Shown here: one piece after another, positions 149 through 48,000 of the stretch | How positions within the stretch are numbered: the stretch's first letter is position 1 | Layout of the letters: every line of letters begins with the position of its first letter | From: an uncultured delta proteobacterium | Lineage (GTDB): Bacteria > Myxococcota_A > Polyangia > Polyangiales > Polyangiaceae | Direction of reading: 5' to 3' | Length of the DNA stretch: 64,000 bases | Assembly (NCBI GenBank): GCA_963696385.1 | Contig: CAVOKF010000008.1 | Coordinates: 160,001-224,000, forward strand | Program-made: the position numbers and the translations under genes | The notes under the pieces: model-generated | What the model saw: the letters and a program-made list of their open reading frames with translations, nothing else | What the model was told of the DNA's origin: nothing | The model's database searches: none

Positions 149-1516
149 ATGCGTTTGGTGGCATTCGGCGTGGGTTACGTGGGACTCGTCACGGGTACGG
201 GCCTCGCGGAGCTCGGACACGACGTGCTTTGCGTCGATATCGACCCGGATCGCATCGCTCAACTCCAAGACGGGGTGATTCCGATTTACGAGCCGGGCCT
301 CGCCGACCTCGTTCGACGAAACGAACGCGCCGGGCGCCTGAAGTTCGCGACCGACGTGATGGCCCCCTTCGACGAAGCCGACGCGTACTTCATCGCCGTC
401 GGCACCCCGCCTGGACCCGACGGCGCGGCCGACATCAGCGCCGTGCTCACGGTCGGCGACCGAATCGCGCAGATCGCCAAGAGGCCGGCTCTCGTGGTGA
501 ACAAGAGCACCGTGCCTGTCGGCACGTGCGACACGGTGCAAGCCCGAGTCGACAAGGCCAAAGTGACTCTCGAGGTCGTCTCGAATCCCGAGTTTTTGAA
601 GGAGGGGACCGCGGTCGACGACTTTTTCAAGCCGGACCGCATCGTGCTCGGCGCTCGGAGCGAACATGCCCGAGAGACGCTCCGGGCGCTCTACGCACCC
701 TTGCAGCTGTCCGGCGAGCGCGTCGTCGTGACGGATCCGCGATCGAGTGAATTGACCAAATATGCGGCCAACACCATGTTGGCCATCCGCGTTTCGTTCA
801 TGAACGAACTCGCACGCCTGTGTCACGCGACCGGCGCCGACATTCATGCGGTGCGCATGGGCGTCGGCAGCGATACGCGAATCGGCAAACGATTCCTGTA
901 CGCGGGCCCCGGCTACGGAGGGTCGTGTTTCCCGAAGGACGTGCAAGCGCTCTTTCACCTCGGACGCGCCCACGGCGTGGCCATGCGATTGGCGGAGGCG
1001 GCGCACCTCGCCAACGAGGAGCAGGCGCATTTCTTGGCCCACCTCGTGGAAGCCAGCGTGGGCGCCCTATCGGGAAAGACGGTCGCGCTCTGGGGGCTGG
1101 CGTTCAAGCCGGAGACGGACGACATCCGAGAAGCGCCTTCCGTCAAGCTCACCCACGCGCTGCTCGCACGCGGAGCGCGCGTCGTGGCGCACGATCCCGA
1201 GGCCGGGAAGAATTTCGCCAAGGCGATGGCGTCCTATGCCGGACGCGTCAAGGTCGTCGATCGCGACTACGACGCGCTCGACGGTGCGCATGCGCTGGTG
1301 CTTCTGACGGAGTGGCGGAGCTACCGCGCGCCGAACTTCGGGGAGATCCGCAAGCGTCTGCTCTTGGCCGACGACGGCGGCCCCCCGGTGGTCATCGACG
1401 GCCGCAACGTGTGGCGTCCTTCGGAGGTGACCCGAGCGGGCCTACGCTACCAGGGGATCGGGGTTCCCTCCAACCAGCCGTCGCCGGACCGCGCATCGAC
1501 GACCGCTTTGCGCTGA
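149..1516 (+). CDS. ugd: UDP-glucose 6-dehydrogenase (UDP-glucose/GDP-mannose dehydrogenase family)
   Basis: N-terminal GVGYVG Rossmann motif, KSTVPVGT, SNPEFLKEG, catalytic GYGGSCFPKD, GLAFKPETDDIREAPS. Confidence 0.95.
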   Translation: MRLVAFGVGYVGLVTGTGLAELGHDVLCVDIDPDRIAQLQDGVIPIYEPGLADLVRRNERAGRLKFATDVMAPFDEADAYFIAVGTPPGPDGAADISAVLTVGDRIAQIAKRPALVVNKSTVPVGTCDTVQARVDKAKVTLEVVSNPEFLKEGTAVDDFFKPDRIVLGARSEHARETLRALYAPLQLSGERVVVTDPRSSELTKYAANTMLAIRVSFMNELARLCHATGADIHAVRMGVGSDTRIGKRFLYAGPGYGGSCFPKDVQALFHLGRAHGVAMRLAEAAHLANEEQAHFLAHLVEASVGALSGKTVALWGLAFKPETDDIREAPSVKLTHALLARGARVVAHDPEAGKNFAKAMASYAGRVKVVDRDYDALDGAHALVLLTEWRSYRAPNFGEIRKRLLLADDGGPPVVIDGRNVWRPSEVTRAGLRYQGIGVPSNQPSPDRASTTALR

Positions 1517-1525
1517 CGAGAGCCC

Positions 1526-2482
1526 GTGGCCCGCTTCGCGGTCACCGGGGGCGTGGGCTTCATCGGCTACCACGTGACTCGTGCGCTTCTCGCGCGCGGC
1601 GACGAAGTCGTCGTCGCCGACGACTTTTCGGACGCGCCCTATCCGCGCGCGTACAAGAGGCGCAACGAAGCGGACTTGCAGGCGGAGTTCGATCCGGTAC
1701 GCGTCGTGGAGGGTTGCGTGACGGACCGCCGCGCGATGGCCACGGTCGTCGACGGGGCCGATTGCCTGATCCATTTGGCGGGGCTGGCGGGGGTGAGACC
1801 GTCGTTCGCCCAACCGGCCCGCTACGCGCGCGTCAACGTCGAGGGCACCGCCGTGATGCAGGAACTCGCTCGCGAGTTCGGGGTCGGACGTTTCGTCTTT
1901 GCCTCGAGCTCGTCGGTCTACGGCAACGCCACGCCGCTGCCCGCCCGCGAAGACGCTCCCGCGGTAACGCCCGAATCGCCCTATGCCGCGAGCAAGCGGA
2001 GCGCGGAGCTCGTGGCGAGCGCGCTGTCGAACCTCACCCCGTCGATGCGATGCGTCGCGCTGCGGTTCTTCACCGTATACGGGCCTCGGCAGCGTCCCGA
2101 AATGGCCATCGCCACATTTACTCGCGCTGCCCTCGCGCGGCAAACGGTGACGATGTACGGCGACGGATCGATGCGCCGCGACTTCACCCACGTCGACGAC
2201 ATCGTCCGCGGCGTGGTCGCGGCGGCGGATCGCGCTCGACCCGGGTTTCGCGTCTACAATCTGGGGTCCGGCGCGCCGGTCGCCTTGAGCACACTCGTCG
2301 AATGGATCGGCCACGCGGCGGGGGCCGCGATCCGGGTCGAACGGTCGCCGGTGCCCCTCGGCGACGTGGACGCCACGTTCGCCGACACCACGCGGGCGGC
2401 TAGCGAGCTCGACTGGAAGCCTCGCATCCCTCTGCGTCAGGGTCTAACGAGCGTCGTCGAGTGGATCCGAGCCAACGGCTAG
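1526..2482 (+). CDS. NAD-dependent epimerase/dehydratase, UDP-glucuronate 4-epimerase-like
   Basis: TGGVGFIG, HLAGLAGVRPS, ASSSSVYG, YAASK, LRFFTVYGPRQRPEMA, RDFTHVDD; directly downstream of ugd; GTG start. Confidence 0.88.
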   Translation: MARFAVTGGVGFIGYHVTRALLARGDEVVVADDFSDAPYPRAYKRRNEADLQAEFDPVRVVEGCVTDRRAMATVVDGADCLIHLAGLAGVRPSFAQPARYARVNVEGTAVMQELAREFGVGRFVFASSSSVYGNATPLPAREDAPAVTPESPYAASKRSAELVASALSNLTPSMRCVALRFFTVYGPRQRPEMAIATFTRAALARQTVTMYGDGSMRRDFTHVDDIVRGVVAAADRARPGFRVYNLGSGAPVALSTLVEWIGHAAGAAIRVERSPVPLGDVDATFADTTRAASELDWKPRIPLRQGLTSVVEWIRANG

Positions 2483-2507
2483 GCCCATTCGCAACCGCGA
2501 ACTGCGT

Positions 2508-2949
2508 GCTTCCTGCTGGGGTGCTCGAGGGGAGCGGCATTCGCTCCCCTCGACGTGTCGTGGATACCTGTACGGCGAGAGTGGAGCCGAGCGAGCGAAG
2601 CGAGTCGAGGCGGAGCGAAGCGCTCAGGGCGACCCTGGTTCCGAAAAACTAAGAGCGAAGCGCTCAGGGTCACCCTGGTTCCGAAAAACTAGAACTAGCT
2701 TCCTGCTGGGGTGCTCGAGGGGAGCGGCATTCGCTCCCCTCGACGTGTCGTGGATGCCTGTACGGCGAGAGTGGAGCCGAGCGAGCGAAGCGAGTCGAGG
2801 CGGAGCGAAGCGCTCAGGGCGACCCTGGTTCCGAAAAACTAGAAAGCCGAGCGAGCGAAGCGAGTCGAGGCGGAGCGAAGCGATCAGGTTCACCCTGGTT
2901 CTGCAACTAAGAGCGAGCGCTCAGGGTGACCCTGGTTCCGCAAAACTAA
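2508..2949. repeat. Mosaic hairpin-rich intergenic repeat (family A): two ~144-bp copies plus extra ~39-bp end modules; REP/BIME- or MITE-like
   Basis: 2508-2651 and 2698-2841 are near identical. Module GAGCGAAGCGCTC-AGGGNNACCCTGGTTCCGAAAAACTA occurs at about 2613, 2653, 2803, 2873 and 2911 (last two degenerate). 12-bp stem TCGAGGGGAGCG/CGCTCCCCTCGA. Confidence 0.9.
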
Positions 2950-4384
2950 ACGCGGGGTGCATGCGTTCGCGCTTCGTGCTCGGCGCGGGCCGCAGATGCC
3001 CCCCGAGATAGATGAGACCGTTGAATGCCGTCCAGGGGCGGGCGTGGCGAAACGTCGTGAGCCACTGCATCATTTTCGGACGGTTGACGCTGGGTCGCAA
3101 GCCGCAGGCAACGGCGTGGTCCTGCGCTTGCCGGAAGGCCTCCGCAGTTCGCTCCTGGACGGCGGGGGGCGAGCACCGTTCGCGCGCCCGCCGCGCGGCC
3201 GCCTTGCCCAGTTTGGCCCGTGCGGCCGGGTCCCGGATCAGCTCGACGGCGGCCCGGCCGAACGCCCGATCCGCGGACGCCTCGGCGTCGTCGCCTTTTC
3301 CCGGCGCGAACAGAATGCCGTTCGTGCCGTCGTGAATCTGAGCGGTGACCCCCATTCCATCGGCGAATGCGATCGTCGGCGTACCGCACCAAAGGGCCTC
3401 GCCCAGAACGTTACCGTACGTCTCGCTCAACGAAGCGTGCACGAACAGGTCCGCGAACCGGTAGTAATCCGGCATCGTCGTCCATGGGACCTCGCCCGTG
3501 AAGAAGACCCGATGCCCGGCACCCAAGTCGTAGGCCACCCGGCGAAAGTGCGCCGCGTCGGGCCCGTCGCCCACGAGCGTCAGTGTGGCCTCGGGCTCCG
3601 CCGGCAAGATGTGCTTGGCGAATATTCGGATGATGCGATCCTGCGACTTCTCGCGCGTGTGCCGGCCCGCGCAGAGCAGCCGCGGACCGCCCTGGGGCGC
3701 CCCACCCTGCTCGATAAGATGGGTATAGGGATCGGCTCCGAGGTCCCTGTCGAATACGTCGGGCTGAACGGCGCGCGGGATCACGTGAATGGGCGCCGTG
3801 ACGCCTCGTTCGCGCCAGTACGTGCGCAGCCCCTCGCTCAGAACCACTAGCCCGTCACTCTGGTTGTAGATGCTCGAGAACAGCCGTTCGAACGGGCGCT
3901 TCAGCGCGAAATGGAGGCCGGCCTGCACGAGGTCACTTTTGGACAGTCGCTCCGGCAATAAGACGTCGTAAGCCGCGACCAAATGCGTCGTATTCACGCA
4001 GAGTAACGGCACGCCCTTCATCTCGCGCAGCCAAATTCCAAACTGGAGCAGCAGCGTCGTGGTCTGCGCGAAGCAGATGTCGAAATTCCAGCGATCGGGA
4101 TCGAAAATCCACGGCGCAAGCGGCATCGGCAGATGGACGCCGGGATACGCCTTCAGCGGGACGCTCGGCAGGGCTACCGTCCCCGGGGCCAGTTCGTCCG
4201 GGGACGCGTCCGGATCATGAGGCCCGATGACTGTGACCTCATGACCACAGCGTCGCAATTCTTGATACAGGAACCGTGTCTGAAATACCGCACCGTTGGC
4301 GTAGGGGATCCGGATGAAGTCGCTCAAGATGGCAACGCGCAGCGGCCGCCCGTGCCGCGCGGCGAGGGCCGCAAACGGCGGCAC
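2921..4384 (-). CDS. GT4 (GT-B fold) glycosyltransferase, resembling glycolipid/diacylglycerol glycosyltransferases
   Basis: LRVAILSD...NGAV, GHEVTVIGP, GRHTREKSQD, ADLFVHASLSETYGNVLGEA. Start uncertain (GTG 4384 or 4465); the upstream ORF extension overlaps the divergent gene. Confidence 0.85.
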   Translation of the reverse strand: MPPFAALAARHGRPLRVAILSDFIRIPYANGAVFQTRFLYQELRRCGHEVTVIGPHDPDASPDELAPGTVALPSVPLKAYPGVHLPMPLAPWIFDPDRWNFDICFAQTTTLLLQFGIWLREMKGVPLLCVNTTHLVAAYDVLLPERLSKSDLVQAGLHFALKRPFERLFSSIYNQSDGLVVLSEGLRTYWRERGVTAPIHVIPRAVQPDVFDRDLGADPYTHLIEQGGAPQGGPRLLCAGRHTREKSQDRIIRIFAKHILPAEPEATLTLVGDGPDAAHFRRVAYDLGAGHRVFFTGEVPWTTMPDYYRFADLFVHASLSETYGNVLGEALWCGTPTIAFADGMGVTAQIHDGTNGILFAPGKGDDAEASADRAFGRAAVELIRDPAARAKLGKAAARRARERCSPPAVQERTAEAFRQAQDHAVACGLRPSVNRPKMMQWLTTFRHARPWTAFNGLIYLGGHLRPAPSTKRERMHPAFSFAEPGSP

Positions 4385-4480
4385 GCCGGGACCGTGGACG
4401 GCGGCAAGCGTCGCGTTGGCCGGCCTTGCGCGCCTTGGCGCCGCCCTTGGGCCCTCGCCTTCCACAGGAGCCGGGATCGC

Positions 4481-5683
4481 TTGAAAATCGTCGACGTCAC
4501 GGAATTTTACTCGGAGCGGGGCGGTGGGATTCGAAGCCATCTGACGACTCGAGGTCACTTTCTGTGCCAGCGCAATCACGACCATCTGGTCATTGCGCCA
4601 GGCGGACGCGAAGAAGATGCCGTAACGGGCTCCAACGTCGCGCAAGGCGGTACGGGCAGGTCGCGGATCGTCCGTTTTGCCGGCCCTGCCCTGCCGTACG
4701 ACCGCACCTACCACTTGCTCGGGCGACTGGACAAGGTTCGGCAGCGGATCCGGAGCGAGCAACCCGACGTGGTCGAGGCTCATTCGCCGTACCTCGCGAC
4801 GGCGGCAATCCTAGGGTCCCGCAACCGTCTTAGACAAGTCACCACAGCGTTTTGGCACACCGACCACGTGGGGACGTATATCGAGCCGGCGCTGGCGGCG
4901 CGCCTCGGAAACGGGCTGACTCGCGTGATATCCCGTCCGCTCTGGTCGCTCACGGCAGCGGTTCTAGCGCCATTCGACGCGGTGTTCGTTGCGGGCCGGG
5001 CGCAAGCCGATCGTCTGCGCTCCGCGGGGGTTCGATCGGTCGTTTTCGCGCCCTTCGGCGTGGACACGACGATCTTCCATCCGGCGCATCGCGACGAAGC
5101 CTGGCGCCGCCGATGGCTTCCGGGGACGCGCGACGAGGTGCCCCTGCTGATCGGAGTCGGCCGATTCGCTTACGAGAAGCGGTGGGACGTCGTCATCCAA
5201 GCGTTCGCGCGGGTGCGCTCGCGCCGAGAGGCCGTTCTGGTGCTCTACGGAGATGGCCCCGAGCGGGAGCGGCTCGAGCGAATGGCCCCCGAAGGGGTCC
5301 ACTTTGCCGGGTTCGAGAAGGATCGACCGAGGCTCGCCGCTGCACTCGCCAGCGCAGACATCCTCGTGCATGCCAGTCCGTACGAGACGTTCGGCCTCGG
5401 TATTGCCGAGGCCGTCGCGTCCGGGCTGCCCGCCGTCGTGCCCGACGTCGGTGGCGCTCTTCAAAGCGTGGACCCGAGCTGCGGCGAAACGTATAGAAGC
5501 CTCGACCCGGCCGCCTGCGCGGCAGCCATCCACATGATCTTGGACCGGAATCCAGAGGAGCTGCGGGATCGAGCGGTCAAGGCCGCACAGCGAGTCCACA
5601 CGGCGGAGGCGCATTTTAACATAGTTTTATCCACTTATGACGAGTTATTGAAAGAAAAATATCATCACTCGCTTCGACGGTGA
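4481..5683 (+). CDS. GT4 glycosyltransferase (alpha-1,6-mannosyltransferase-like)
   Basis: TTG start giving MKIVDVTEFYSERGGGIRS; VGRFAYEKR; ADILVHASPYETFGLGIAEAVASGLP. Confidence 0.88.
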   Translation: MKIVDVTEFYSERGGGIRSHLTTRGHFLCQRNHDHLVIAPGGREEDAVTGSNVAQGGTGRSRIVRFAGPALPYDRTYHLLGRLDKVRQRIRSEQPDVVEAHSPYLATAAILGSRNRLRQVTTAFWHTDHVGTYIEPALAARLGNGLTRVISRPLWSLTAAVLAPFDAVFVAGRAQADRLRSAGVRSVVFAPFGVDTTIFHPAHRDEAWRRRWLPGTRDEVPLLIGVGRFAYEKRWDVVIQAFARVRSRREAVLVLYGDGPERERLERMAPEGVHFAGFEKDRPRLAAALASADILVHASPYETFGLGIAEAVASGLPAVVPDVGGALQSVDPSCGETYRSLDPAACAAAIHMILDRNPEELRDRAVKAAQRVHTAEAHFNIVLSTYDELLKEKYHHSLRR

Positions 5684-5687
5684 AACC

Positions 5688-6461
5688 GTGCCCGTCCACG
5701 TGTCGATTCACGATGCAGCTCCGTGTTGGGCATCCGAGGTCGAGGCGGCGTTGCGCCTCTGCCACGCCGAGCGAATCCGGCCTGCGCTTCTCGTGGTCCC
5801 CAATTTCCATGGCACTGCCCCGCTGCTCGAATCGCCGACGTTTTGTTCGCGGCTGCGCGATCTCCAAGCCGACGGCCACGAAGTGTTTTTGCACGGCTTT
5901 CTTCATCGAAGCTCGCCTCGGTACGACCCGAGCCGCGGGCATTCGCGCATCGGCTGGCTCTTTGCGCAGCGGCTCGCATCGGGCGGCGAGGCCGAAATGA
6001 GCGACGTGTCCGAGAGCGAAGGCCGCGATCGCATCGAGGCCGGAGAGGTCGTGCTCCACCGTGCGGGACTCACGATCGATGGGTTCGTTGCCCCGGCCTG
6101 GTCGATGCCCCGATGGCTATTGCCGTGGTTGTCCGAACGCGGGTATCGATTTAGCGAGGATCACTTTCGCGTTTATGACCCCAAGGAGCGACGCTCGCGG
6201 AGCAGCGTCGTGCTCAACTGGGCCACTCGGTCTCCCGAGCGCATCCTCTCGACCATCGGCTGGTGCCGGTTGGCACGCTACGGTCGGGCCTTCGTTCCGG
6301 CGCGCATCGCCATCCACCCGGCCGACATGCGTGTCTGGATCGTCCGCAGGGAAGTCGAGCGTCTGCTCCGATGGGCGCGCGGCGACGTCGTAGCGCGCGG
6401 AGCGGATCTCTTCGGGCCTCGCGAGGCCATGGCCTCCCCGGCGCCGGGTGGATCCGTGTGA
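5688..6461 (+). CDS. DUF2334 family predicted (polysaccharide) deacetylase
   Basis: VSIHDAAP, LLVVPNFH, EVFLHGFLH, GEAEM, GFVAPAW, RIAIHPAD motifs. Confidence 0.82.
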   Translation: MPVHVSIHDAAPCWASEVEAALRLCHAERIRPALLVVPNFHGTAPLLESPTFCSRLRDLQADGHEVFLHGFLHRSSPRYDPSRGHSRIGWLFAQRLASGGEAEMSDVSESEGRDRIEAGEVVLHRAGLTIDGFVAPAWSMPRWLLPWLSERGYRFSEDHFRVYDPKERRSRSSVVLNWATRSPERILSTIGWCRLARYGRAFVPARIAIHPADMRVWIVRREVERLLRWARGDVVARGADLFGPREAMASPAPGGSV

Positions 6462-8341
6462 GCGCGTGGCCCATCGAAGTCGCCGCGACCCCGGCCCTGC
6501 GGGACGCCTCGGCAATGACCCCCGCCGAGGTTCGGCGATACCTCCTGGCGAGTCTCGTGCTCGTGATGGTCACGTCGTACTTCAGCGTGACATTCTTTCA
6601 CCCCGACGAGCACTACCAAGTGGTCGAGCTCGTCGGGCTGAAGCTCGGAAGGACGACGGAAACGAACCTTCCCTGGGAGTTTCACGAGCGGATGCGCGCG
6701 TGGCTGCAACCGGCCGCCTATACCGCCATCGCACGCGCCGCCGAGACGATCGGCCTTCGCGACCCATTTGCTTTGGCCTGGCTATGGCGCATGGCCTCGG
6801 GGCTTCTCGCGTGGGGAGCGATCCGCAGCATGATACGAACGTCGTTGGGCTGGTGCGACGGCCGGACCAGCGCGATCGTGCAGATCCGAGCCATCGCGCT
6901 GCTCGGGTTCGTTCCTTATCTGGCCGTGCGCACGTCGTCGGAGAACGTCTCGTGTTCGCTCCTCACGATCGGCTTCTGCTTCTGGATGGGCAGGCTCCAT
7001 GCCGGCGATCGTGCAGCCGGCGGCGCCGACCGCGGGAGCCGTTCGACCCTTTCCGCGCCCGTCGCATTCGTCGGCGGAGGACTCTTCGGACTCGCCTTCG
7101 AATGCCGCTTCCAGACCGCGGTCCTCGCTGCCGGGCTGATCGCGTGGCTCTGCGTTTTTCGGCGACTCCGGCCGGGGGGAGCCCTTTCGCTCGCGGCCGG
7201 CGTCATCGCCGCCCTAGCGGTCGGCTTGCTGGTCGATCGGTGGGGGTATGGCGAATGGACCTTCCCGGCCGTCCACTATTTCTATCGGAACGTCGTCGAC
7301 CGAATCGCGTCTCGCGAGTTCGGGGTCACTCCGGTCTACGGCTATCTCTATCTTCTTCCGTCCAACATCTTCGGGCCGGTCGTCGTCGTTCTGATGGCCG
7401 GTTTGACCCTGACCTGGGTGCGCCACCCCAAGCATCCTCTGACCTGGGCAACCCTGCCCTACGCCTTCGTCCACTGCGCTTTGGACCACAAGGAAGAGCG
7501 GTTTTTCTTTCCCATCCTGCTTTTGGCGACGGCCGGCGTGACGCTCGGCTTTTCTCCCGCTCGTCGCATTTCCCCTCTGGGCCCGATCGGGTCGCGTGTC
7601 GCGCGGATCGGCGACCTGGTCGCCGGACGACTCTGGAACTTGCGATGCGGCTGGATCGCCCGAATCGTCGTGGCCGACAACCTGCTCGGCCTGCTGCTCT
7701 TGGCCGTCTACCCGCTCGGTTGGCGATCCAATCTCACGTTTTATGCCTACGTCGACCGTCACCTGCAGCCCGATTCGCGCATCCTGAAGCTCGGCGACTG
7801 GCATTTCCCCGAATACCCATTTTATCAAAACGGCCTGTGGCGCGTCGAAACGCTGGCTCGGACCGACAACGTGCACGCCTCGAGGATCGAGCCCCTGCGA
7901 CGAGAGCCCACCTATTTCGTGACGCCGCTGCCGTACGACGGCGTGCCCACCCGCGCCGGCGCGACGGCCGAGCTCGTCTACTCGGACTTCCCCGGCTGGC
8001 AATGGTCGACGATCCGGGACTGGGTCGGCCCGCTTCTTCGACACGCCCGTCGGATTCTCGACCCCATCGAAATCATCCCCCAGGCCAAATGGCTGACGCT
8101 CTATCGCCTCGAGTCCGGCAGCTCGCCGCCCATCGGTTTGCCCGAACGGCTCGGTAGCGACGGCGCCGTCGCGCTTTCGGTCTCGCGCGCGGGCGCGACG
8201 CCGTCCACGGCGAAGACCCCCGAGCCGCCGTGGCTCCGACGGCGCGCGGGCGAGATCAAGTGCAACATCGACGGGACCACGAACAAGGCGCTCGCCAGGC
8301 ACGCGACCTCGCCGCTCATCGCGACCCAGCCGAAGGACTGA
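6458..8341 (+). CDS. PIG-B/Alg9-like (GT22, GT-C fold) polytopic mannosyltransferase
   Basis: FFHPDEHYQVVE, LPWEF...MRAWLQP, VRTSSE, RFQT, VDRWGYGEWTFP...YF, FGVTPVYGY, HKEERFFFP; many TM segments. GTG start overlaps the upstream TGA (GTGA). The 3' end overlaps the convergent MMPL gene. Confidence 0.82.
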   Translation: MSAWPIEVAATPALRDASAMTPAEVRRYLLASLVLVMVTSYFSVTFFHPDEHYQVVELVGLKLGRTTETNLPWEFHERMRAWLQPAAYTAIARAAETIGLRDPFALAWLWRMASGLLAWGAIRSMIRTSLGWCDGRTSAIVQIRAIALLGFVPYLAVRTSSENVSCSLLTIGFCFWMGRLHAGDRAAGGADRGSRSTLSAPVAFVGGGLFGLAFECRFQTAVLAAGLIAWLCVFRRLRPGGALSLAAGVIAALAVGLLVDRWGYGEWTFPAVHYFYRNVVDRIASREFGVTPVYGYLYLLPSNIFGPVVVVLMAGLTLTWVRHPKHPLTWATLPYAFVHCALDHKEERFFFPILLLATAGVTLGFSPARRISPLGPIGSRVARIGDLVAGRLWNLRCGWIARIVVADNLLGLLLLAVYPLGWRSNLTFYAYVDRHLQPDSRILKLGDWHFPEYPFYQNGLWRVETLARTDNVHASRIEPLRREPTYFVTPLPYDGVPTRAGATAELVYSDFPGWQWSTIRDWVGPLLRHARRILDPIEIIPQAKWLTLYRLESGSSPPIGLPERLGSDGAVALSVSRAGATPSTAKTPEPPWLRRRAGEIKCNIDGTTNKALARHATSPLIATQPKD

Positions 8342-10815
8342 AGGGCTTGCATGTCCGCGAGCAGGAGCGAACTGTACCCGATGGTCGTCGTGTAGCTGCA
8401 CAGCGCTACGGCGCCGCCCACCCTGTGCAACGCGCTCGTCACGTTGCCGCCGAGCAGCCGAGTGCGATCGTAGATATTGAACGGGTATTCGCAGCCGACC
8501 CCGAAGGTGATGGGTAGCGCAATGAAGTTCAGAAAATTGAGCTTCACGTTCATGGCCGCGGCTCCGCCGAGCGTCCAGAGGACCCCCATGGCGAGCGACG
8601 TCAGCACGACGAGCGCCCCGACCAGATCGTGCGTCGCGATCAAGACCACGACGACGACCGCGCCGAACGAGGCCACGGTGGCGAGCGGGCCGTCTCGCTC
8701 CATCGAGCGGATCATCTCGGCGAAGATCGTCGCGCGGCTGGCCGTGAGCACCTTCGTTCCATCCGGCAAGACGACGTTGTCGGTGGCGCGCGCGATTCTG
8801 AGCAAATTGTGGCCATTCGACAGGACCACGTCGTTTCGATATTTGACGTAGAAGACGGTCCCGACCGTGCCGTTGTTTTCCTGAAACCGCCGCCGAAGCA
8901 AACTCGGCAAATCCTTCGCGCCGATGGGACGCAGAGTTCGCGGCGGCGTCAAATCGTCGACATCCGATCGCTCTTGGGCGGAAAGCCCGTGGAGCACGGC
9001 CGGCGTGAGGCGATCGCGAATGCGATCGAGGATCGCGATCTTGGCGCGCTGCTCCTCTTCCGTGCCCGGCAAGACGTCTGCCACGGTCAAGACTTCGTGA
9101 ATGAGCGGCCCTTGGGGATCGGCCGCGTCGTTCTTCAGAATCTGCGCCTTGAGCAACGGCACCTGATCGGGGGTATCGGCGAGCATCACGGCGCCCGAAA
9201 TGTTGTTCTTGCCGCCGAACACGTCGTCGGCCTTGATGGACCATTCGGCCGCGCCGCCGGCCTTGGATCCCTTGGACCCGAGTTTGTCGAAGTTGTACTC
9301 CCAGGGGTCGCGCAAATAGGTCGGCAGCCTCGACAGGGCGAGCGCGGAGAGCGCGATGGCACCCAGCACGAACGCCCACGGCGCGCGCGCCGTCACGCGC
9401 GCGACGAAGCGGATGACGGGCCCCGGCATTCCGTCGACGGAGTGTCGTTCGCGCTCGCGCCACGAGACCGGAAGATGCGCTTCGACGCGCTCCTGAAGCG
9501 CGATCATGGCAGGCACGCAGGGGATGATCGTCACCCACACGAGCAGCATGCCCACGAAGCCGATCAGGCCAAACTGGTTGAAACCGCGAAAGCGGGTGAT
9601 GGTCAGCGAACCGTACGCGATCGATCCGACGCACGCGCCGACCAGCTCGGCCCGGAATGCGTTGAGCACTGCATCGCGACGGGCCTGTTGCGGGGTGAGC
9701 CCACGGGCTCGAAATTCGCGGTAGCGCGACAAGAGAACGATCGGGTAGTTGATGCCGTTTCCCAGGATGATCGCGCCGAGGAACGCGCCTGACGTGTTCA
9801 CGTAGCCAAAGCGGGCCATGGCAAACGAGTAGGCGAACCCGACGCCGAGCAGCGCGGGCAACGCGATCGTCGGGATGGACCACAGCGAGCCGTAAAACAA
9901 AACGATGCCGGCGAGGATGACGACGAGCACGAGCACCGACGCCCAGGCGGCCGACGAGACGAGCGATTGTTTCTCGGCGACCGCGTTGGGAATGTCTCCG
10001 GCGAATCCGACGCGCATGGCGGGGTCGAAACGGGCGGGACGCAGCCGCTCTACCAACGCCCGCACATCCGCATAGAGTAGGTCGCCCAGCCGGTCGCCGG
10101 TGCCCGTGCTCTGGGAGACGATGCGAAGGCCGACGGTATGGCCGTCGGGCGTCGAAAAGTACCCCGACGGAAACTCGTCCAATGTGGCGTACTTCGACTT
10201 CATCTGGCCGCGAAGCTCGCCGAGGCCGAGCGCGGAGGACGGGTCCGATGCCGCGTTCGAGTCGCCGCCGGGCTTGTCCGCGACCTCTTCGTCGTCCAGG
10301 CTTTCGACCAACCCGCTCCGAATCGCGATCTGGCGATCGACGCGGTCGTAGGCTCTATCGAGATCCGCCGCACTGGCGTACAGCCACTTGGACGCCTCGA
10401 CGAACGCGTGAACGTCCTTCGTGCCTCGCTCGACGTACGCGATGAGCGGGGGCGCGCACGTTTGCGGGCATGAAGGAGTCGTGCACGCCGCGACGCACCG
10501 CGACCGCTCGCCCATCCGCCCCTCGATCGCGTCGGCCACCGCATCGATCAACCGTTCGTTGGCCTCGACGTCGGGGGAATCGGCGAGCACGAGCAACGAG
10601 CCCCGACCGCCCACGCGTCCGAGCTGGTGCTCGAAGGCCGCAAACCCGGGGCTGTCGCGAGGCAGGAGCTCGAGAAAATCGGAGCGCAGATCCAGGTGCG
10701 ATGCGTAACCCCACGACGCGATCAGGAACAGCAGCGAGACGACCAGAACGAGGATCGGCCGACGGGCGCTGAAATCGACGATCCGGACAATGAGCGTTTT
10801 CATGAGCGTGGCCAT
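8101..10815 (-). CDS. MMPL/RND superfamily lipid exporter (HpnN-like)
   Basis: Two 1+5 TM repeats with large periplasmic loops; GAIILGNGINYPI and LPITFGVGCEYPFNI (GxGxDY-like motifs); GAGG before ATG 10815. Confidence 0.88.
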   Translation of the reverse strand: MATLMKTLIVRIVDFSARRPILVLVVSLLFLIASWGYASHLDLRSDFLELLPRDSPGFAAFEHQLGRVGGRGSLLVLADSPDVEANERLIDAVADAIEGRMGERSRCVAACTTPSCPQTCAPPLIAYVERGTKDVHAFVEASKWLYASAADLDRAYDRVDRQIAIRSGLVESLDDEEVADKPGGDSNAASDPSSALGLGELRGQMKSKYATLDEFPSGYFSTPDGHTVGLRIVSQSTGTGDRLGDLLYADVRALVERLRPARFDPAMRVGFAGDIPNAVAEKQSLVSSAAWASVLVLVVILAGIVLFYGSLWSIPTIALPALLGVGFAYSFAMARFGYVNTSGAFLGAIILGNGINYPIVLLSRYREFRARGLTPQQARRDAVLNAFRAELVGACVGSIAYGSLTITRFRGFNQFGLIGFVGMLLVWVTIIPCVPAMIALQERVEAHLPVSWRERERHSVDGMPGPVIRFVARVTARAPWAFVLGAIALSALALSRLPTYLRDPWEYNFDKLGSKGSKAGGAAEWSIKADDVFGGKNNISGAVMLADTPDQVPLLKAQILKNDAADPQGPLIHEVLTVADVLPGTEEEQRAKIAILDRIRDRLTPAVLHGLSAQERSDVDDLTPPRTLRPIGAKDLPSLLRRRFQENNGTVGTVFYVKYRNDVVLSNGHNLLRIARATDNVVLPDGTKVLTASRATIFAEMIRSMERDGPLATVASFGAVVVVVLIATHDLVGALVVLTSLAMGVLWTLGGAAAMNVKLNFLNFIALPITFGVGCEYPFNIYDRTRLLGGNVTSALHRVGGAVALCSYTTTIGYSSLLLADMQALQSFGWVAMSGEVACLASALFVVPSMLHLISPARRRSHGGSGVFAVDGVAPARETESATAPSLPSRSGKPMGGELPDSRR

Positions 10816-10900
10816 CGCGACCTCGCCAGAGGCGTGTGCCACGCCGCGCCCCCGTCGGGGCGACCGGCGTTTCCGCAGATCGCCGGGATGCGCCGAGCCA

Positions 10901-12163
10901 TCACCGCGCTACACGCTCGATCTCGCGCTGGATGACGCGGGCGTGAGGACGCGCATCGAAGTCGCGTTCGACGAGAGCGCGCCCCGCTTGGCCGTGCGCC
11001 TTGCGCAGGTCCGCACGACGGAAATACTCGACGAAATGCCGCGCCATCCGACCCACGTCGGGTGGCTTGCCGGCGAGCAACCCGTTGACACCGGACTCGA
11101 CCATCTCGGGGATGCCGCCCATGGCGAAGGCGACGACAGGCTTGGCGAGCGCCATGGCTTCGAACGTCGCTCGTGGCAAAGGATCCTCGTAGACGCTCGG
11201 GATCACCGTCACGTCGAAGTCGCGCACGTACGCCTTGATGTCGGCCTGGAACCCGACGAAATGAAAATGGCGGTCGAGCGCCAGTTCGCCCACGAGCGCG
11301 CGGCACTCGGCGAGATGATCGACTTGGACGTCTTGCGGAGTATCGCCGATGACCACGAACCGCGCGCGCCTGCGCTCCTCTTCGGTCAGCGCATCCATGG
11401 CCAGGCGCGCCGCACGAATCATCTCGATATACCCCTTTCGCGGCAAGATGCGCCCTTGACTGCCAAAGACGACGGTGTCGGACGACAACCCCAATTGGGA
11501 GCGCAGCGCACGCGGCCCGTCCACGGAAAACTCCTGGGCGTCGATCGAGTCGTGCACGATCGTCACCTTGTGGCGCGCGCATGGATCGAAGAGCCTTGCG
11601 GTCGGCTGGGACACGCAGAGAATCGAGCGCACGGATCGGCTCGCCGCGAGGTGTCCGTGCAGCCGCGACAAGGCCGGCGCCACGGTCGAGTAGAAGACGT
11701 GCCAGATGACGGGTACCCCGGCCAGCCGGCCGAGCGCCGCGCCGGCGAAGTTCGCGGATGTGCCGTTGCAAAAAATCGCGTCGTAGCGGCCGCGTCGCAC
11801 CCGAGCCGCGAGCCGGGCCATGCCGACCGCCGCCCGGCCGACGTTGCCCGCGGCCCGCACGCCGCGGACCAGCCGTGGCGCTTCGAAATCGGCCCGATCC
11901 ATCGCGCGGTCCCACGGTTCGACGAGGTTCTCGATCCAGTTCGGCTCGAACCAGATCTCGTCGGTCGCCCCGTGGCGGCGCAATCGATCGGCCACGACAC
12001 CGTCGCGCGGAACGACCACCGACCGATAGACGACGCTCGGGTCGATGAACTTGAGGATGTACAGCAGGGTGCTGCCGGGTCCCCCGTTGCGAGACGTGTC
12101 GTTGATGAAGAGGACTCGCAAGCGTTCCCGTCCGATCGCCGCCCGAGACGCCTCTGGCGGCAC
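10901..12163 (-). CDS. GT4 glycosyltransferase
   Basis: LRVLFINDTSRNGGPG, GRILPRKG, VIPSVYEDPLPRATFEAMALAKPVVA; start uncertain (GTG 12163). Confidence 0.88.
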   Translation of the reverse strand: MPPEASRAAIGRERLRVLFINDTSRNGGPGSTLLYILKFIDPSVVYRSVVVPRDGVVADRLRRHGATDEIWFEPNWIENLVEPWDRAMDRADFEAPRLVRGVRAAGNVGRAAVGMARLAARVRRGRYDAIFCNGTSANFAGAALGRLAGVPVIWHVFYSTVAPALSRLHGHLAASRSVRSILCVSQPTARLFDPCARHKVTIVHDSIDAQEFSVDGPRALRSQLGLSSDTVVFGSQGRILPRKGYIEMIRAARLAMDALTEEERRRARFVVIGDTPQDVQVDHLAECRALVGELALDRHFHFVGFQADIKAYVRDFDVTVIPSVYEDPLPRATFEAMALAKPVVAFAMGGIPEMVESGVNGLLAGKPPDVGRMARHFVEYFRRADLRKAHGQAGRALVERDFDARPHARVIQREIERVAR

Positions 12164-12176
12164 CCGAGGCGCGCCG

Positions 12177-15100
12177 TCAGTCGTCGAACTTGAAGAGATC
12201 ATCGAGGTCGCTCTTGGTCAGCTTCTTCGCGCCACCCACGTCCTCGGAGAGAACCGCCCCGACGAGCTCGCGCTTTTTCTCCCCGAGCTCGATGATCTTC
12301 TCTTCGATGGTGCCCTTCGCGACCAGACGGTAGGTCGTGACGACCTTCGTTTGTCCGATCCGGTGCGCACGGTCGGTCGCCTGGTCCTCGACGGCGGGGT
12401 TCCACCACGGATCGAAGTGGATGACCGTGTCGGCCGCGGTGAGGTTCAAGCCGCTGCCGCCTGCTTTGAGGGAGATGAGAAATACCGGCGGGCCGTCGTC
12501 GCTCTGGAAATGCTCGACGACCGACTGCCGATCCTTGGTCGATCCGTCGAGGTACGCGAAGGTCACTCGATCTTCCTCCAGGGCTCGCCGAATGAGCTGC
12601 AGCATGGTCACGAACTGGCTGAACACGAGCACCTTGTGGCCCCCGGCAATGCTCGTCTGAATGAGCTCCCGGAGTGCCACGAGTTTGCCGGAGTCCTCGT
12701 CGCCGAACTCGCGCGGAAGGCCGAGCAGCCGCGGGTCGCACGCCGCCTGACGCAGTCGCGTCAAGCCCGCGAGAATCTGGATGTGGCTGCGGGCCACGCC
12801 AATCCGCTCGACCTCGCCCATGACCTGCGCGCGCACCTCCTTGAGCACCGCCGCATAGAGCGCTCCTTGCTCGCCGATGAGTTCGCAGAATTGGTCCTGC
12901 TCGATTTTCTCCGGCAGGTCGCGGGCCACCTCGGACTTCGTGCGGCGAAGAATGAAAGGATGGATGGTGACCCGGAGCCGCTCGGCGGCCGTCTTGTCTC
13001 CCGCGTCGATCGGGCGAGAGTAGCGCTCTTCGAATTTGTCGAGCGGGCCCAGAAGACCGGGGCTCACGAAGTCGAATATCGACCATATCTCGCTAAGTCG
13101 ATTCTCGATCGGCGTCCCGGTCAAAGCGAGTCGCCGATCGGTCTTCAGGCGCTTGGCGGCGCGTGCCGTCGCACTGAAGGGGTTTTTGATCTGCTGCGCT
13201 TCGTCGACGATGACGTAGCGCCACGGGATCTCCTTGAGGAGCTCCTCGTCACGCCGCAGGAGCGCATAACTGGTCACGACGACGTCGGCGTCTTCGAGTT
13301 CGTCCTGTCGCTCCTTGCGTTCGGCGCCGTGCCAGAGCGCGTGCCGGAGAGAAGGCGCAAATTTGTCCATCTCGCGGAGCCAATTCGTCACGACACTCGT
13401 CGGCGCGACGATGAGTGCCTTGAAAGGCTTGCGCCGCCCCTCGATCTTCGCGTCCTCGTTCTTGACCGCCAAAAGCAACGCCAGCGTTTGCACCGTCTTG
13501 CCGAGACCCATGTCGTCGGCCAGCACGCCGCCGGTCCCAATCTCGTGCAAAAACCAGAGCCACTGAAACCCTTGCTCCTGGTAGGGCCGCAGCTGCGCCT
13601 TCAGGTTTCTTGGTTTGCGCGCCCCCTTGATCTCGTCGATTTCTTTGAGCTTCTTGAATATTTCTCGGGTCTCGCCGGATATCCCGGACCGCCCCACCTG
13701 GGCCAGGAGATCTTCGATGCGGCCGGCCTGCGAAAGCGGCAGCCGACCTCCGTTGCCACCGCCGGTCGCGAGGATTTCCGCTTGGCGCTGAAGAACCTCG
13801 CGAACCTTCTGCGGGTCCAGTCGAGCGAACGTGCCGTCGGCGAGTCGGACGTAGCGTCGTCCTTCCGACAGGCAGCGCGCGAGCTCCTCTTGCGTGACGG
13901 CGACGCCCTCGCTCTCGAAGTTGAGCCGGAGCGATAGCCAATCGACCCCACTCGATACGCGGGCGTTGGCCGTCAGCGCCTCGTCGCGAACCTGCACGTC
14001 GACGAGGTCGTCGGGTACGAAGATGTCCCAGTCGTCGGGCAGCAGGCCGATTCCCTCGGTCCAGAAGCGCAGCGCGTCGTCGCCTCGCGCGACGAACTTG
14101 TTGCCGTCTTCCGCCGGTACCAGGCCCAGATCCCGCAGCTTGGCCGCGGCGGACTGCTGCGCGGCGATGTCGCACCGAATGCAGCGCGCGCGCTTCGCGC
14201 TGCCCGGCCCCGGCGACTTGACGATCACCGGAAGGGTCATCCCATCGGCTCGGACGTCGACTTCGGTGTCTTCGTACGCCGCGCGCAGGCTCACCTGGGC
14301 TTCGATCAGATTGCCACCGGCTGCGACGCGGAACGTCGGAACGAGGTCGACGACGTCGGCCACCTGCGACAGCTCGGGCAGCTCGGCCCCGACCTCGACC
14401 GCGACCTTCGGGAGTCCGTGCATGACGAGCTCGGCAAGACGCTCGACCGGTTCGCCAATCGCCGACAGCCGGAGCAGCCGCCGAATCGCCGCCGGAGATA
14501 CACGCCGGTCGATGGGACGCGCCCAGCCCTCTTGCGCGTCGACGTACCACCCGGGGCTACCCTCGAACCAGGCACCGCTCGTCGTGGTGAATCGCCGCGG
14601 GTCTCCTTGCCGCTGAAAGGAGGCGCGCACCATGATCTGTGCGCCGTCGGGCGACAGTTCGAGATCAAAGCGCGGCCGCAATGGCTCGTCGCCGAAGCGC
14701 AGCTCCATCATTTGGGGCTCGACGATGACGCGTCGCCCCTTCAGCAGCGGCAAGAGGTCGCTCGCGTCTTCGCCGCGAACGTCGATGCCCACCCGCCGCG
14801 GACCCTGATTCTCGAAACGAGCCAGCAGCCGCACGGCATCCCGATCGGCGGTGGGGTGTTGGTCTTGCGCGAGCAGCAGAGCGCTCGGCAAGAGCGGAAC
14901 GCGGGCGTCCGGATCGAGCAGCGTAATGGTGAGCGCACCGCTCGTCGCGTTGGGGGAATGGCCCGGTTGCTTGATCTGAAGCCGGTACTCGATGTGCTTG
15001 GGGGCGGGCGGCATCGGCTCGGGAAGCCACGCGTCGACGCCCGTCCCGCTCGGAACGAGCGCGCGCGGCGGGGGCGCGCCTGGATGCCCGGCATGCGCCG

Positions 15101-15551
15101 CCTTCATCGCGCGCGCCCGCGCTCTCTTGCTGCGACGGCCCTCTCCGTCGACGCCGGCCACGTGCACGGTGCCGCCGTGCACCGTGTAATGGACCCCGTT
15201 CGGCGGCGCTTGCGGCGCCGCAGCCGGACGTGGCTGGGCGCCGCGCGCCTGATCGCGTAGCGCAATGAGCAACGCTGCGACATGCTTGCAATGCCCCCCA
15301 TTGCTCGATGCGTAGGCCGGACACGTGCAGTTCGAAGTAAAGCCACTGGGCGATAGCTTCAGCGTCACCTTGTAAGGCTCTGCTTCGGTGCCGCGTACGT
15401 GTCCGCGCGCCCCTGCGTCTTCGATGACGATGTTCTCGACGGCGTGCCGTCGCACGTAATCGTAGCCGCGCAGGTAGGCGCGCGCCCCCAGAAGGCGTCG
15501 GAGGGCGCGATCGTTGAGTGTCGATAGGGCTTCGGTGAACGGTGAGGCCAA
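12177..15551 (-). CDS. SWIM zinc finger-SNF2 family helicase/ATPase
   Basis: SWIM CTC...CKH; LRPYQ, LADDMGLGKT, DEAQQIKN, ALTGTPIENR, SLKAGGSGLNL, QATDRAHRIGQ; start uncertain (TTG 15551; ORF open to 15773). Confidence 0.95.
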   Translation of the reverse strand: MASPFTEALSTLNDRALRRLLGARAYLRGYDYVRRHAVENIVIEDAGARGHVRGTEAEPYKVTLKLSPSGFTSNCTCPAYASSNGGHCKHVAALLIALRDQARGAQPRPAAAPQAPPNGVHYTVHGGTVHVAGVDGEGRRSKRARARAMKAAHAGHPGAPPPRALVPSGTGVDAWLPEPMPPAPKHIEYRLQIKQPGHSPNATSGALTITLLDPDARVPLLPSALLLAQDQHPTADRDAVRLLARFENQGPRRVGIDVRGEDASDLLPLLKGRRVIVEPQMMELRFGDEPLRPRFDLELSPDGAQIMVRASFQRQGDPRRFTTTSGAWFEGSPGWYVDAQEGWARPIDRRVSPAAIRRLLRLSAIGEPVERLAELVMHGLPKVAVEVGAELPELSQVADVVDLVPTFRVAAGGNLIEAQVSLRAAYEDTEVDVRADGMTLPVIVKSPGPGSAKRARCIRCDIAAQQSAAAKLRDLGLVPAEDGNKFVARGDDALRFWTEGIGLLPDDWDIFVPDDLVDVQVRDEALTANARVSSGVDWLSLRLNFESEGVAVTQEELARCLSEGRRYVRLADGTFARLDPQKVREVLQRQAEILATGGGNGGRLPLSQAGRIEDLLAQVGRSGISGETREIFKKLKEIDEIKGARKPRNLKAQLRPYQEQGFQWLWFLHEIGTGGVLADDMGLGKTVQTLALLLAVKNEDAKIEGRRKPFKALIVAPTSVVTNWLREMDKFAPSLRHALWHGAERKERQDELEDADVVVTSYALLRRDEELLKEIPWRYVIVDEAQQIKNPFSATARAAKRLKTDRRLALTGTPIENRLSEIWSIFDFVSPGLLGPLDKFEERYSRPIDAGDKTAAERLRVTIHPFILRRTKSEVARDLPEKIEQDQFCELIGEQGALYAAVLKEVRAQVMGEVERIGVARSHIQILAGLTRLRQAACDPRLLGLPREFGDEDSGKLVALRELIQTSIAGGHKVLVFSQFVTMLQLIRRALEEDRVTFAYLDGSTKDRQSVVEHFQSDDGPPVFLISLKAGGSGLNLTAADTVIHFDPWWNPAVEDQATDRAHRIGQTKVVTTYRLVAKGTIEEKIIELGEKKRELVGAVLSEDVGGAKKLTKSDLDDLFKFDD

Positions 15552-15973
15552 AGACGCTACGCACGCGCGAGGGCGTGCCCTTTCGTTACTTCGGTACTCG
15601 GTTTGACGTATCGGCCATGGTCCTCGGGCGGTGACAGGGAACCTGGCCTGCGAGCCTCGCGGTGAAGACCGTCGCAAGCGACGGGTCGGCCCGCGGTGCG
15701 AGGTTCGGTCACGGCGCGTTTTTGCAGCAACGACGCCGAGAGCGCGCGAACTCTCTGTAGTAGTCCGTAGCATCGCTCATACCCATCCGCAAACCGTTTT
15801 GCATTCGCACGAGTCCGATCGGGCCCGCGCAAGGCCCCCGGTCGCTCGTGTCCGGGCCTTCCCGCTCGTCGCCATGGCAAGCGCGAAGCGTTTCGGTCTC
15901 GAGGCCTGAACCTCACGACCCCAGGCAGCGATCGCCCCCGCATGCTTGAGCGGCTGCCGCTTCGGCGATACGG

Positions 15974-47994: not shown

Positions 47995-48000
47995 TGCGTA

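Follow-up and report, generated by a model that had tools for sequence, protein, structure and literature searches.

What is made, and how is it carried out of the cell, where a bacterial chromosome encodes three family 4 glycosyltransferases (GT4), a DUF2334 deacetylase, a GT-C enzyme of glycosyltransferase family 22 (GT22) and an MMPL transporter side by side with genes for uronic acid supply? The question is raised by a gene cluster at the beginning of a 64,000-nucleotide stretch (the window; positions 160,001 to 224,000 of contig CAVOKF010000008.1, assembly GCA_963696385.1) from an uncultured member of the Polyangiaceae, whose genome comprises 6.94 Mb in 8 contigs and whose closest public relative is a Polyangiaceae metagenome-assembled genome (MAG). 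An initial annotation, made from the sequence letters, had seen in the cluster the synthesis and export of a glycolipid resembling the glycosylphosphatidylinositols (GPI) of eukaryotes or the glycosylinositol phosphoceramides (GIPC) of plants, rather than a Wzx/Wzy polysaccharide. Pfam and NCBIfam scans of the open reading frames (ORFs) of the window, from which gene identities were taken, confirmed all the genes it had named (ugd, an epimerase, three GT4, DUF2334, GT22 and MMPL). Gene content and homology support a glycolipid synthesis and export locus rather than a Wzx/Wzy pathway, as it had proposed, but neither the inositol lipid implied by its reading nor its treatment of GT4, DUF2334 and GT22 as a unit was supported. 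On balance we lean towards a locus that makes and exports a membrane glycolipid containing glucosamine (GlcN) and, probably, uronic acid.

The evidence starts with the second GT4 enzyme, GT4b (window positions 4481-5683, plus strand, 400 amino acids), and the DUF2334 protein encoded behind it (5688-6461, plus strand, 257 amino acids; PF10096, 86 bits). GT4b matches NF053787, the model for GpgS, with 187 bits (E 5e-55; cut-off 480) over profile positions 1-360 of 361, and it is the sole strong match in the genome, the second-best reaching 75 bits; we treat it as a candidate GpgS-like lipid N-acetylglucosaminyltransferase. The DUF2334 protein, which is also aligned over its full length, matches the GpgD model NF053788 with 107 bits (E 8e-31; cut-off 280) and is the only match to that model in the whole genome. 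Both scores lie below the equivalog cut-offs, and the two proteins are therefore homologues rather than equivalogs or orthologues of GpgS and GpgD, whose acceptor, and even sugar, may differ. In Pseudomonas aeruginosa, gpgSDF is reported to make glucosaminyl-phosphatidylglycerol (GlcN-PG; Khan, Palmer & Guan 2025, PMC12713373). According to the transposon mutants, complementation and Escherichia coli expression described there, GpgS forms N-acetylglucosaminyl-phosphatidylglycerol and GpgD deacetylates it to GlcN-PG, and the third gene, gpgF, encodes a predicted flippase (PMC12713373). By sequence similarity gpgSDF is the closest characterised system for the GT4b-DUF2334 pair, a parallel that had been missed in the initial annotation. 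As in gpgSDF, a GT4 gene is directly followed by a COG3233/DUF2334-type deacetylase gene in one operon, and the pathway logic would likewise consist of cytoplasmic transfer of N-acetylglucosamine (GlcNAc) to a lipid, de-N-acetylation and translocation. The DUF2334 translation has no visible N-terminal hydrophobic leader, which suggests a cytoplasmic location for the protein. A sequence search of the PDB with DUF2334 gave no match, and the literature searched for this family held no report bearing on its function.

The locus differs from gpgSDF in its third gene, which is GT22, and no GpgF (UPF0104/LPG_synthase_TM) gene is present at the locus. It also adds an RND (resistance-nodulation-division)/MMPL transporter, two GT4 enzymes, the supply of UDP-glucuronic acid (UDP-GlcA) and UDP-galacturonic acid, and, in some lineages, GT22; with these extra genes the expected product is larger than GlcN-PG. 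A GpgF-like flippase was considered as a hidden partner and rejected: the genome holds five LPG_synthase_TM matches, none of them at the locus, and the best GpgF-like gene lies unlinked 38 kb away (48932-50404). Nor was an LPG_synthase_TM gene found beside DUF2334 in the relatives' loci that were scanned. Compared by description only, hexSDF of Clostridioides difficile, which makes aminohexosyl-hexosyl-diradylglycerol and is cited as analogous in the gpgSDF paper (PMC12713373), shares with the window locus the logic of synthase, deacetylase and flippase or translocation for a cationic aminoglycolipid; unlike the window locus it belongs to a Gram-positive host, employs a flippase rather than an RND transporter and is without a GT-C step.

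A means of transport is offered by the MMPL gene (8101-10842, minus strand, 913 amino acids; PF03176, 99 bits), which encodes an HpnN-like transporter of the HAE3 type within the RND superfamily. Its best NCBIfam matches, all below cut-off, are HAE3 (TIGR00921, 124 bits), HpnN (TIGR03480, 123 bits; cut-off 752) and BstA; against the hopanoid transporter model NF052374 it scores 71 bits (cut-off 1100), and its best PDB matches are the HpnN structures 5khn and 6wu0. With the HpnN/HAE3 RND lipid exporters (the Burkholderia hopanoid transporter, and the sterol transporter BstA) it shares the MMPL Pfam domain and, by analogy, an expected role in carrying a bulky lipid across to the outer membrane from the inner one. 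In contrast to HpnN, it scores far below the equivalog cut-offs and its gene is linked to glycosyltransferases; no hopanoid or sterol genes lie beside MMPL or GT22.

The uronic acid is suggested by the first two genes of the cluster. The product of ugd (149-1516, plus strand, 455 amino acids) has all three UDPG_MGDP_dh domains of a UDP-glucose 6-dehydrogenase and scores 413 bits against TIGR03026 (cut-off 190); the gene is kept near the cluster in loci L003, L039, L043, L046, L047 and L078. It is followed by an SDR sugar-nucleotide epimerase that resembles UDP-GlcA 4-epimerases (1526-2482, plus strand, 318 amino acids; PF01370, 192 bits). Its first PDB match is 5u4q (E 1.4e-49), an entry labelled dTDP-glucose 4,6-dehydratase, followed by MoeE5 (6kv9, E 2.9e-49) and, two rows lower, the B. 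cereus structures 6zl6/6zla (E 3.5e-39); GalE entries rank below MoeE5 and 6zl6. Because we take MoeE5 and the B. cereus enzymes to be UDP-GlcA 4-epimerases, "uronate epimerase" is a reasonable label with a presumed substrate. In the relatives' loci compared, the epimerase gene always comes with ugd. Two further glycosyltransferases could add sugars. GT4a (2921-4384, minus strand, about 487 amino acids) carries Glycos_transf_1 and Glyco_transf_4 domains; its ORF spans 2921-4783 with a likely GTG start at 4384, and its best NCBIfam matches, the GlcNAc transferases BshA and MshA, are weak. GT4c (10901-12202, minus strand, 433 amino acids; Glycos_transf_1), whose start may instead lie at about 12163, is located upstream of MMPL on the minus strand and has stp2 and EpsE-type glycosyltransferases as its best NCBIfam matches, below cut-off.

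Do these genes belong together beyond this genome? The cluster is collinear in the Polyangiaceae MAG at 88-97% amino-acid identity, and groups of its genes are found together again in genomes further removed, an arrangement that, on this comparative evidence, is beyond chance. Our phylum sample consisted of 300 other genomes, including 23 each from f1, the family of the host, and f18. DUF2334 homologues were present in 35 of the 300 (12/23 in f1 and 16/23 in f18), and 16 DUF2334 loci were compared by tblastn. Ten of them represent the 11 strong matches in f1 (G080, split over two contigs, was left out), two come from the f6 genomes and four from elsewhere. GT4b stands beside DUF2334 in 11 of these 16 loci, GT4a next to GT4b in 10, and ugd together with the epimerase in four (L039, L043, L046 and L047). 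MMPL comes immediately after DUF2334, without GT22, in L039, L043 and L046, and is then followed by GT4c in the latter two. The same-genus locus L038 has the order epimerase-GT4a-GT4b-DUF2334-GT4c-SNF2, without MMPL and without GT22; no other flippase was found beside DUF2334 in relatives without an adjacent MMPL. Orthologues of the window MMPL (at least 49% identity) occur in 12 of the 23 f1 genomes, that is, in all 11 with a DUF2334 orthologue (at least 49%) and in one (G070) of the 12 without, and the two f6 genomes have both DUF2334 and MMPL at 43-44% identity. As judged from these genomes, GT4a, GT4b and DUF2334 make up the conserved core, to which ugd-epimerase and MMPL-GT4c are often joined. 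In the same family, G095, a single 1.8-Mb contig of 96% completeness, keeps ugd-epimerase-GT4a-GT4b-DUF2334 and the MMPL orthologue; retention of the cluster in so small a genome suggests that it matters.

GT22 was found to be an accessory gene that travels with MMPL, most relatives with the GT4/DUF2334 core being without it in our comparisons, and the initial annotation's GT4-DUF2334-GT22 set is thus no conserved unit. A GT22 match (E<=1e-10) was obtained in 7 of the 300 genomes (3/23 in f1, 4/23 in f18); all seven loci were taken, and the match in G070 was weak and without a tblastn match, leaving six clear orthologues. MMPL directly adjoins GT22 in all six. In f1 the order is MMPL then GT22, co-directional, with MMPL identities of 54-58%, and in f18 the genes are convergent, with MMPL identities of 23-28%. 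DUF2334 and GT4 genes occur in the flanks of GT22 in one of the six genomes (L024, where at most 6 kb separate GT22/MMPL from DUF2334 and a GT4a-like gene). G110 and G215 have a single MMPL orthologue, located with GT22, and in G140, G195 and G010 the orthologue is located with DUF2334, which suggests that the same transporter partners both gene sets, even when they are unlinked. A metagenome scan with the GT22 alignment yielded 79 loci, in 10 of which MMPL stands beside GT22 (L074, L075, L077, L080, L086, L089, L093, L097, L098 and L103), in six GT4b, DUF2334 or ugd (L074, L076, L078, L092, L094 and L097), and in 65 no locus gene at all, the latter mostly at 26-36% identity and many on short contigs. 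The gene order of the window recurs around GT22 in L003, L074 and L076; in L097 MMPL-GT22 is convergent with GT4b-DUF2334, in L092 and L094 a GT4b-like gene is directly followed by GT22, and L078 reads GT22-ugd-epimerase.

The GT22 gene itself (6458-8341, plus strand) encodes 627 amino acids, of which residues 20 to 570 or so form the conserved part. It scores 98 bits against PF03901 (cut-off 23.8), and its six orthologues score 83-104 bits. Invariant in an alignment of eight orthologues are F47, H48, D50 and E51 as well as HKEERF (H344-F349). The N-terminal FHPDEH-type loop motif and HKEERF correspond to the "long" motif and the HKEXRF "short" motif described for GPI mannosyltransferases (PMC3906172). 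The alignment profile matches human ALG9 in the PDB across HKEERF (E 2.5e-5). An AlphaFold model of moderate quality (pLDDT 63, pTM 0.66) retrieved in Foldseek, as its top three PDB matches, ALG12 (9s6t; E 1.7e-8, TM-score 0.61) and ALG9 (9s6u and 9s6s), with OST, ArnT and PMT ranking below them. By profile, motifs and model, GT22 is a genuine member of the ALG9/ALG12/PIG-B family, in agreement with the PIG-B/Alg9-like label given initially. ALG9, ALG12, PIG-B and PIG-Z are the dolichyl-phosphate-mannose-dependent mannosyltransferases of N-glycan and GPI assembly in eukaryotes. The window GT22 differs from them in being a bacterial protein and shares 13-14% identity with those enzymes whose structures are solved. 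At its C-terminus it carries an additional alpha/beta domain, some 130 residues long and conserved in Myxococcota-type orthologues alone, and its gene adjoins that of an RND transporter, as do the clear orthologues inspected. Residues 555-627 are disordered in the model, and the sequence from about 570 on is conserved in the nearest relatives only.

Known GT22 enzymes all transfer to lipid-linked acceptors, according to the review consulted (PMC6801728). In the literature searched we found no characterised bacterial member of GT22/PF03901, although metagenomes hold many: 323 homologues at E<=1e-10 among 8000 candidates scored, automatically named "phosphatidylinositol glycan class B". The host genome encodes six GT2 proteins similar to polyprenyl-phosphate-sugar synthases (AglJ, ArnC/PgfS and PpgS types), none of them linked to the locus and none above the equivalog cut-off. 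A second GT22 paralogue (G000:C3:126360-127316; L001/L028), 27% identical to that of the window, scores higher against PF03901 (139.5 bits), and no locus gene was found within 10 kb of it. In the Bdellovibrionota loci L007 and L009-L013 (Bacteriovoracaceae/Halobacteriovorax) an SNF2 helicase with 36-43% identity to the SNF2 helicase of the window is encoded a few kb from a distant GT22 homologue; this proximity could be fortuitous or reflect synteny within the lineage.

From homology and gene linkage, on which all steps depend, the following route can be drawn for a glycolipid with glucosamine and uronic acid. On the cytoplasmic face, the GpgS-like GT4b, or perhaps GT4a in its stead, would use UDP-GlcNAc to place GlcNAc on a membrane lipid; homology points to phosphatidylglycerol or a different glycerolipid. 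The GpgD-like DUF2334 protein would then strip the acetyl group to give a GlcN-lipid, to which GT4a and GT4c would add sugars including glucuronic acid (GlcA) or galacturonic acid, with Ugd and the UDP-GlcA-4-epimerase-like SDR supplying the activated uronic acids. The HpnN-like MMPL/RND protein would replace the GpgF flippase of Pseudomonas and bring the lipid towards the periplasm or outer membrane. In the minority of lineages that encode GT22, this enzyme might then extend the exported lipid on the periplasmic side by a hexose, which its family membership suggests is mannose, with a polyprenyl-phosphate sugar as donor. More tentatively, the whole might follow the logic of GPI core assembly on a non-inositol lipid, namely GT4 transfer, de-N-acetylation, transport by an RND protein in place of a scramblase, and mannosylation outside from polyprenyl-phosphate mannose by a GT22 that forms a working unit with the transporter; this extended version is possible, but we would not bet on it. 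If true, it would give bacterial GT22 a first function and present a first GT-C enzyme coupled to an RND lipid exporter, and the Myxococcota-type GT22 genes would bear on the origin of eukaryotic ALG9, ALG12 and PIG-B.

Several observations weigh against the reading as an exported glycolipid with glucosamine and uronic acid. The GpgS and GpgD matches fall far under their equivalog cut-offs (187 against 480 and 107 against 280 bits), and the GT22 model is of moderate quality only (pLDDT 63). GT22 is unlinked to GT4/DUF2334 genes in five of the six other genomes, and its distant bacterial homologues (26-36% identity) stand in unrelated contexts: the neighbours in seven distant metagenome loci scanned with Pfam are unrelated (GH95, Dus and esterases, for example), and 17 distant genome loci are likewise without locus context. 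In G225, a genome of the same genus, the GT4/DUF2334 core is present but has no MMPL beside it, and GT22 is missing altogether. Within the stretch compared, DUF2334 has no GT4 neighbour in L041 (G110) and L045 (G075), and in the f18 loci L024, L052 and L053 it is followed by a GT4a-like and not a GT4b-like gene, so that either GT4 could feed the deacetylase. The genome has a squalene/oxidosqualene cyclase gene, and a hopanoid or sterol cargo of the transporter is therefore possible, the cyclase gene lying 250 kb away. Finally, the genomes behind the co-occurrence counts are related, so that the events counted are not independent of one another and the counts overstate independence.

To which lipid would the sugars be attached? 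Two genes for inositol-phosphate synthase exist in the host genome. One of them forms an operon (G000:C4:353600-359100; L163 6605-12113, minus strand) with genes for a PAP2_3 protein (AUR1/BT_1522-like), a PgpA protein (BT_1525-like) and an MMPL paralogue with 36% identity to that of the window, located on another contig than the latter. This operon is likely, by its gene content, an inositol-lipid synthesis and export cluster and resembles the inositol-lipid cluster described for Bacteroides (PMC9246714); the organism therefore probably makes inositol lipids, and the position of the paralogue fits a transporter family that serves polar-lipid export. In G225, G002, G010, G140, G120 and G070, too, an inositol-phosphate synthase gene and an MMPL paralogue are only a few kb apart. 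The second synthase gene of the host (G000:C5:58400-63700; L164) is accompanied by a DegT-type aminotransferase, a weak LPG_synthase_TM protein and a GH3-family ligase and may, from this content, belong to an aminocyclitol or modified-inositol lipid cluster. Among the 12 relatives with DUF2334 and an MMPL orthologue, inositol-phosphate synthase was found in eight and not in the other four, whose completeness is 97% (G080), 96% (G095), 99% (G110) and 96% (G215) and two of which, G110 and G215, carry GT22. An inositol anchor is thus disfavoured, by gene content, with uptake of external inositol as a possible way around.

Ceramide may also be considered as the anchor. The genome encodes two alpha-oxoamine synthases, the best scoring 299 bits against a serine-palmitoyltransferase cut-off of 640, and hence no serine palmitoyltransferase above the model cut-off. 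Among the genome-wide lipid genes that the initial annotation had in view, inositol-phosphate synthases were found, while all candidates for polyprenyl-phosphate-sugar synthesis and for serine palmitoyltransferase remained below their cut-offs. The tetrasaccharide lipid of sphingomonads contains GlcA, GlcN, galactose and mannose and would need enzymes of the kinds encoded at the window locus. The likeness to the glycosphingolipids of sphingomonads and Caulobacter (Sgt1/Sgt2, ceramide glucuronosyltransferase), compared by description only, lies in the use of GT4-type enzymes and UDP-GlcA to make uronic-acid glycolipids (PMC13318209). In contrast to those organisms, the host keeps its lipid A genes, in addition to having no serine palmitoyltransferase above cut-off. 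Replacement of lipopolysaccharide (LPS) by a sphingolipid-type glycolipid, as in Sorangium, was rejected on the same two grounds: the genome encodes LpxC and LpxB, from which we conclude that LPS is not replaced by the lipid, and the palmitoyltransferase candidates fall short. The literature searched on Sorangium glycolipids held no report bearing on function.

Against this background, a true GPI/GIPC-type lipid, with an inositol phospholipid or inositol phosphoceramide as its base and mannosylation by the PIG-B-family GT22 after translocation, seems very improbable to us, even with two inositol-phosphate synthases in the genome, one in an operon with a paralogous MMPL, with a gene order GT4, deacetylase, GT22 that parallels PIG-A, PIG-L and PIG-B, and with ceramide phosphoinositol reported from Myxococcus xanthus (PMC9246714). 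The inositol operon is on a different contig, the four relatives named above (96-99% complete) were found without the synthase, which goes against the GPI/GIPC interpretation given initially, and no serine palmitoyltransferase scores above its cut-off. Phosphatidylglycerol is the acceptor of the characterised enzyme most closely related to GT4b, and the score against MshA is no higher than 43 bits. Unlike in eukaryotic GPI/GIPC assembly, the deacetylase is DUF2334 and not of the PIG-L/LmbE family, as had been cautioned at the outset, and the Pfam hits of GT4b are to generic GT4 domains; Pfam reported neither a PIG-A-specific domain nor a PIG-L-family deacetylase at the locus, and GT50, GT76, ethanolamine-phosphate transferases and a transamidase were not seen there, no genome-wide search for them having been made. 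The resemblance to GPI therefore holds, as far as homology tells, for the pathway logic and for two enzyme families (GT4 and GT22), and does not extend to the deacetylase family or, probably, to the inositol anchor.

Two other explanations do without inositol. GT22 and MMPL could form a self-contained two-gene module acting on another lipid-linked substrate (a hopanoid, a sterol, an LPS/lipid-A precursor or another polyprenyl-linked glycan), brought to its place in the window by local rearrangement, with separate products for the two gene sets. This is unlikely in our view but has several points in its favour: in L021, L022, L023, L025 and L026 GT22-MMPL stands among unrelated genes (chemotaxis, DAHP synthase, kinase, SurE) in flanks without GT4 or DUF2334, G225 of the same genus has no GT22, the nearest solved relatives of MMPL export hopanoids, and the host genome contains the cyclase gene mentioned above. 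It has to contend with the finding that the same MMPL orthologue group (54-60% identity) stands beside DUF2334 without GT22 in three genomes and tracks DUF2334 in 11 of 11, that no hopanoid or sterol genes adjoin GT22 or MMPL, and that links between GT22 and GT4b, DUF2334 or ugd come in at least five different gene orders, which is hard to obtain by chance. Alternatively, the cluster could build or decorate a surface polymer, be it an exopolysaccharide (EPS), a modification of the LPS core or O-chain or a protein glycan, with the GT4 enzymes acting on a polyprenyl-linked intermediate and DUF2334 as polysaccharide deacetylase. Polysaccharide loci typically carry GT4, ugd and uronate epimerases, the weak best NCBIfam matches of GT4c are EPS and PEP-CTERM glycosyltransferases, the host makes lipid A (LpxC, LpxB), and DUF2334 belongs to the polysaccharide-deacetylase-like superfamily. 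We nevertheless hold a polymer to be improbable: the only characterised relatives of GT4b-DUF2334 act on a phospholipid, the linked transporter is of an RND family that exports lipids, and no priming phosphoglycosyltransferase, Wzx, Wzy, Wzz or ABC exporter was found in the cluster, the 14 kb upstream or the relatives' loci scanned. For the window itself, the absence of wzx, wzy and a priming transferase noted initially was borne out among the locus ORFs and extends, together with that of an ABC exporter, from 14 kb upstream to the window end, with a Wza-like gene at 63.3 kb as the sole exception. An exported glycolipid with glucosamine and probably uronic acid thus remains the reading that we prefer.

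As to the fine structure of the locus, GT4b, DUF2334 and GT22 form one plus-strand operon. The likely start of GT4b is a TTG at 4481 with GGAG 10 nt upstream, and the close spacing described initially is exact in the sequence: a 4-bp gap separates GT4b (TGA at 5681-5683) from DUF2334 (GTG at 5688), and DUF2334 and GT22 overlap in GTGA at 6458-6461. The arrangement as a whole needs correction in that GT4c and MMPL lie on the minus strand, convergent with this operon, and GT4a is transcribed divergently from GT4b. The reading frames of GT22 and MMPL overlap by 241 bp, an overlap made up of the non-conserved C-terminal tails of both proteins, in which a 3-nt indel is found relative to L003. Between the epimerase and GT4a lies a block of direct repeats with units of about 190 and 40 bp (2490-2950, no strand assigned; read from the sequence, with a 40-bp period found by TRF). 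The 190-bp unit has 36 blastn matches genome-wide including the copies of the block itself (23 on contig C8, 10 on C5 and 3 on C1), partly in tandem arrays and with another site in the window at 34086-34204; the units contain a short palindrome, and copy number at 2490-2950 varies between related strains, as seen in contigs of sequencing runs. The block belongs to a dispersed repeat family and probably has no role in the pathway. An SNF2 helicase gene flanks the cluster after GT4c (12177-15773), and the 14 kb upstream and the rest of the window contain housekeeping genes.

Several studies of soil, peat and wetland have metagenome runs with contigs of near-identical DNA, and the best holder may be the source sample. 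Soil and peat metagenome contigs bridge GT4b-DUF2334-GT22 as well as GT22-MMPL. Two peat metatranscriptome libraries contain contigs with about 93-95% identity over ugd, GT4a, the 5' part of GT4b, DUF2334, MMPL and GT4c; coverage over the body of GT22 is thin, from which silence should not be read. We regard these contigs as a weak hint that the locus is expressed in a relative, since carried-over DNA may account for them.

Glucosaminyl-phospholipids alter membrane charge and resistance to cationic antimicrobials, and the genes for them were found only in 2025, in one organism. If the present locus is a guide, soil and peat Polyangiaceae make a more elaborate relative of these lipids, one that bears uronic acids, has an RND exporter of its own and is sometimes decorated by a GT-C enzyme, and the association of a GT-C glycosyltransferase with an RND lipid transporter would be a new pairing. 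It also provides a testable handle on the bacterial GT22 proteins that are numerous in metagenomes and automatically annotated as "PIG-B". If the product is exposed at the surface, it would bear on the outer-membrane biology of predatory and social myxobacteria.

Elsewhere in the window, positions 46504-49053 encode a full-length MATCAP domain protein (microtubule-associated tyrosine carboxypeptidase family, 415 bits), a family unusual for a bacterium, beside a MoxR-type AAA ATPase. Between 39718 and 46304, two ketoacyl-synthase genes with a carrier protein and an enoyl-CoA hydratase make up a small cluster of lipid or polyketide type.

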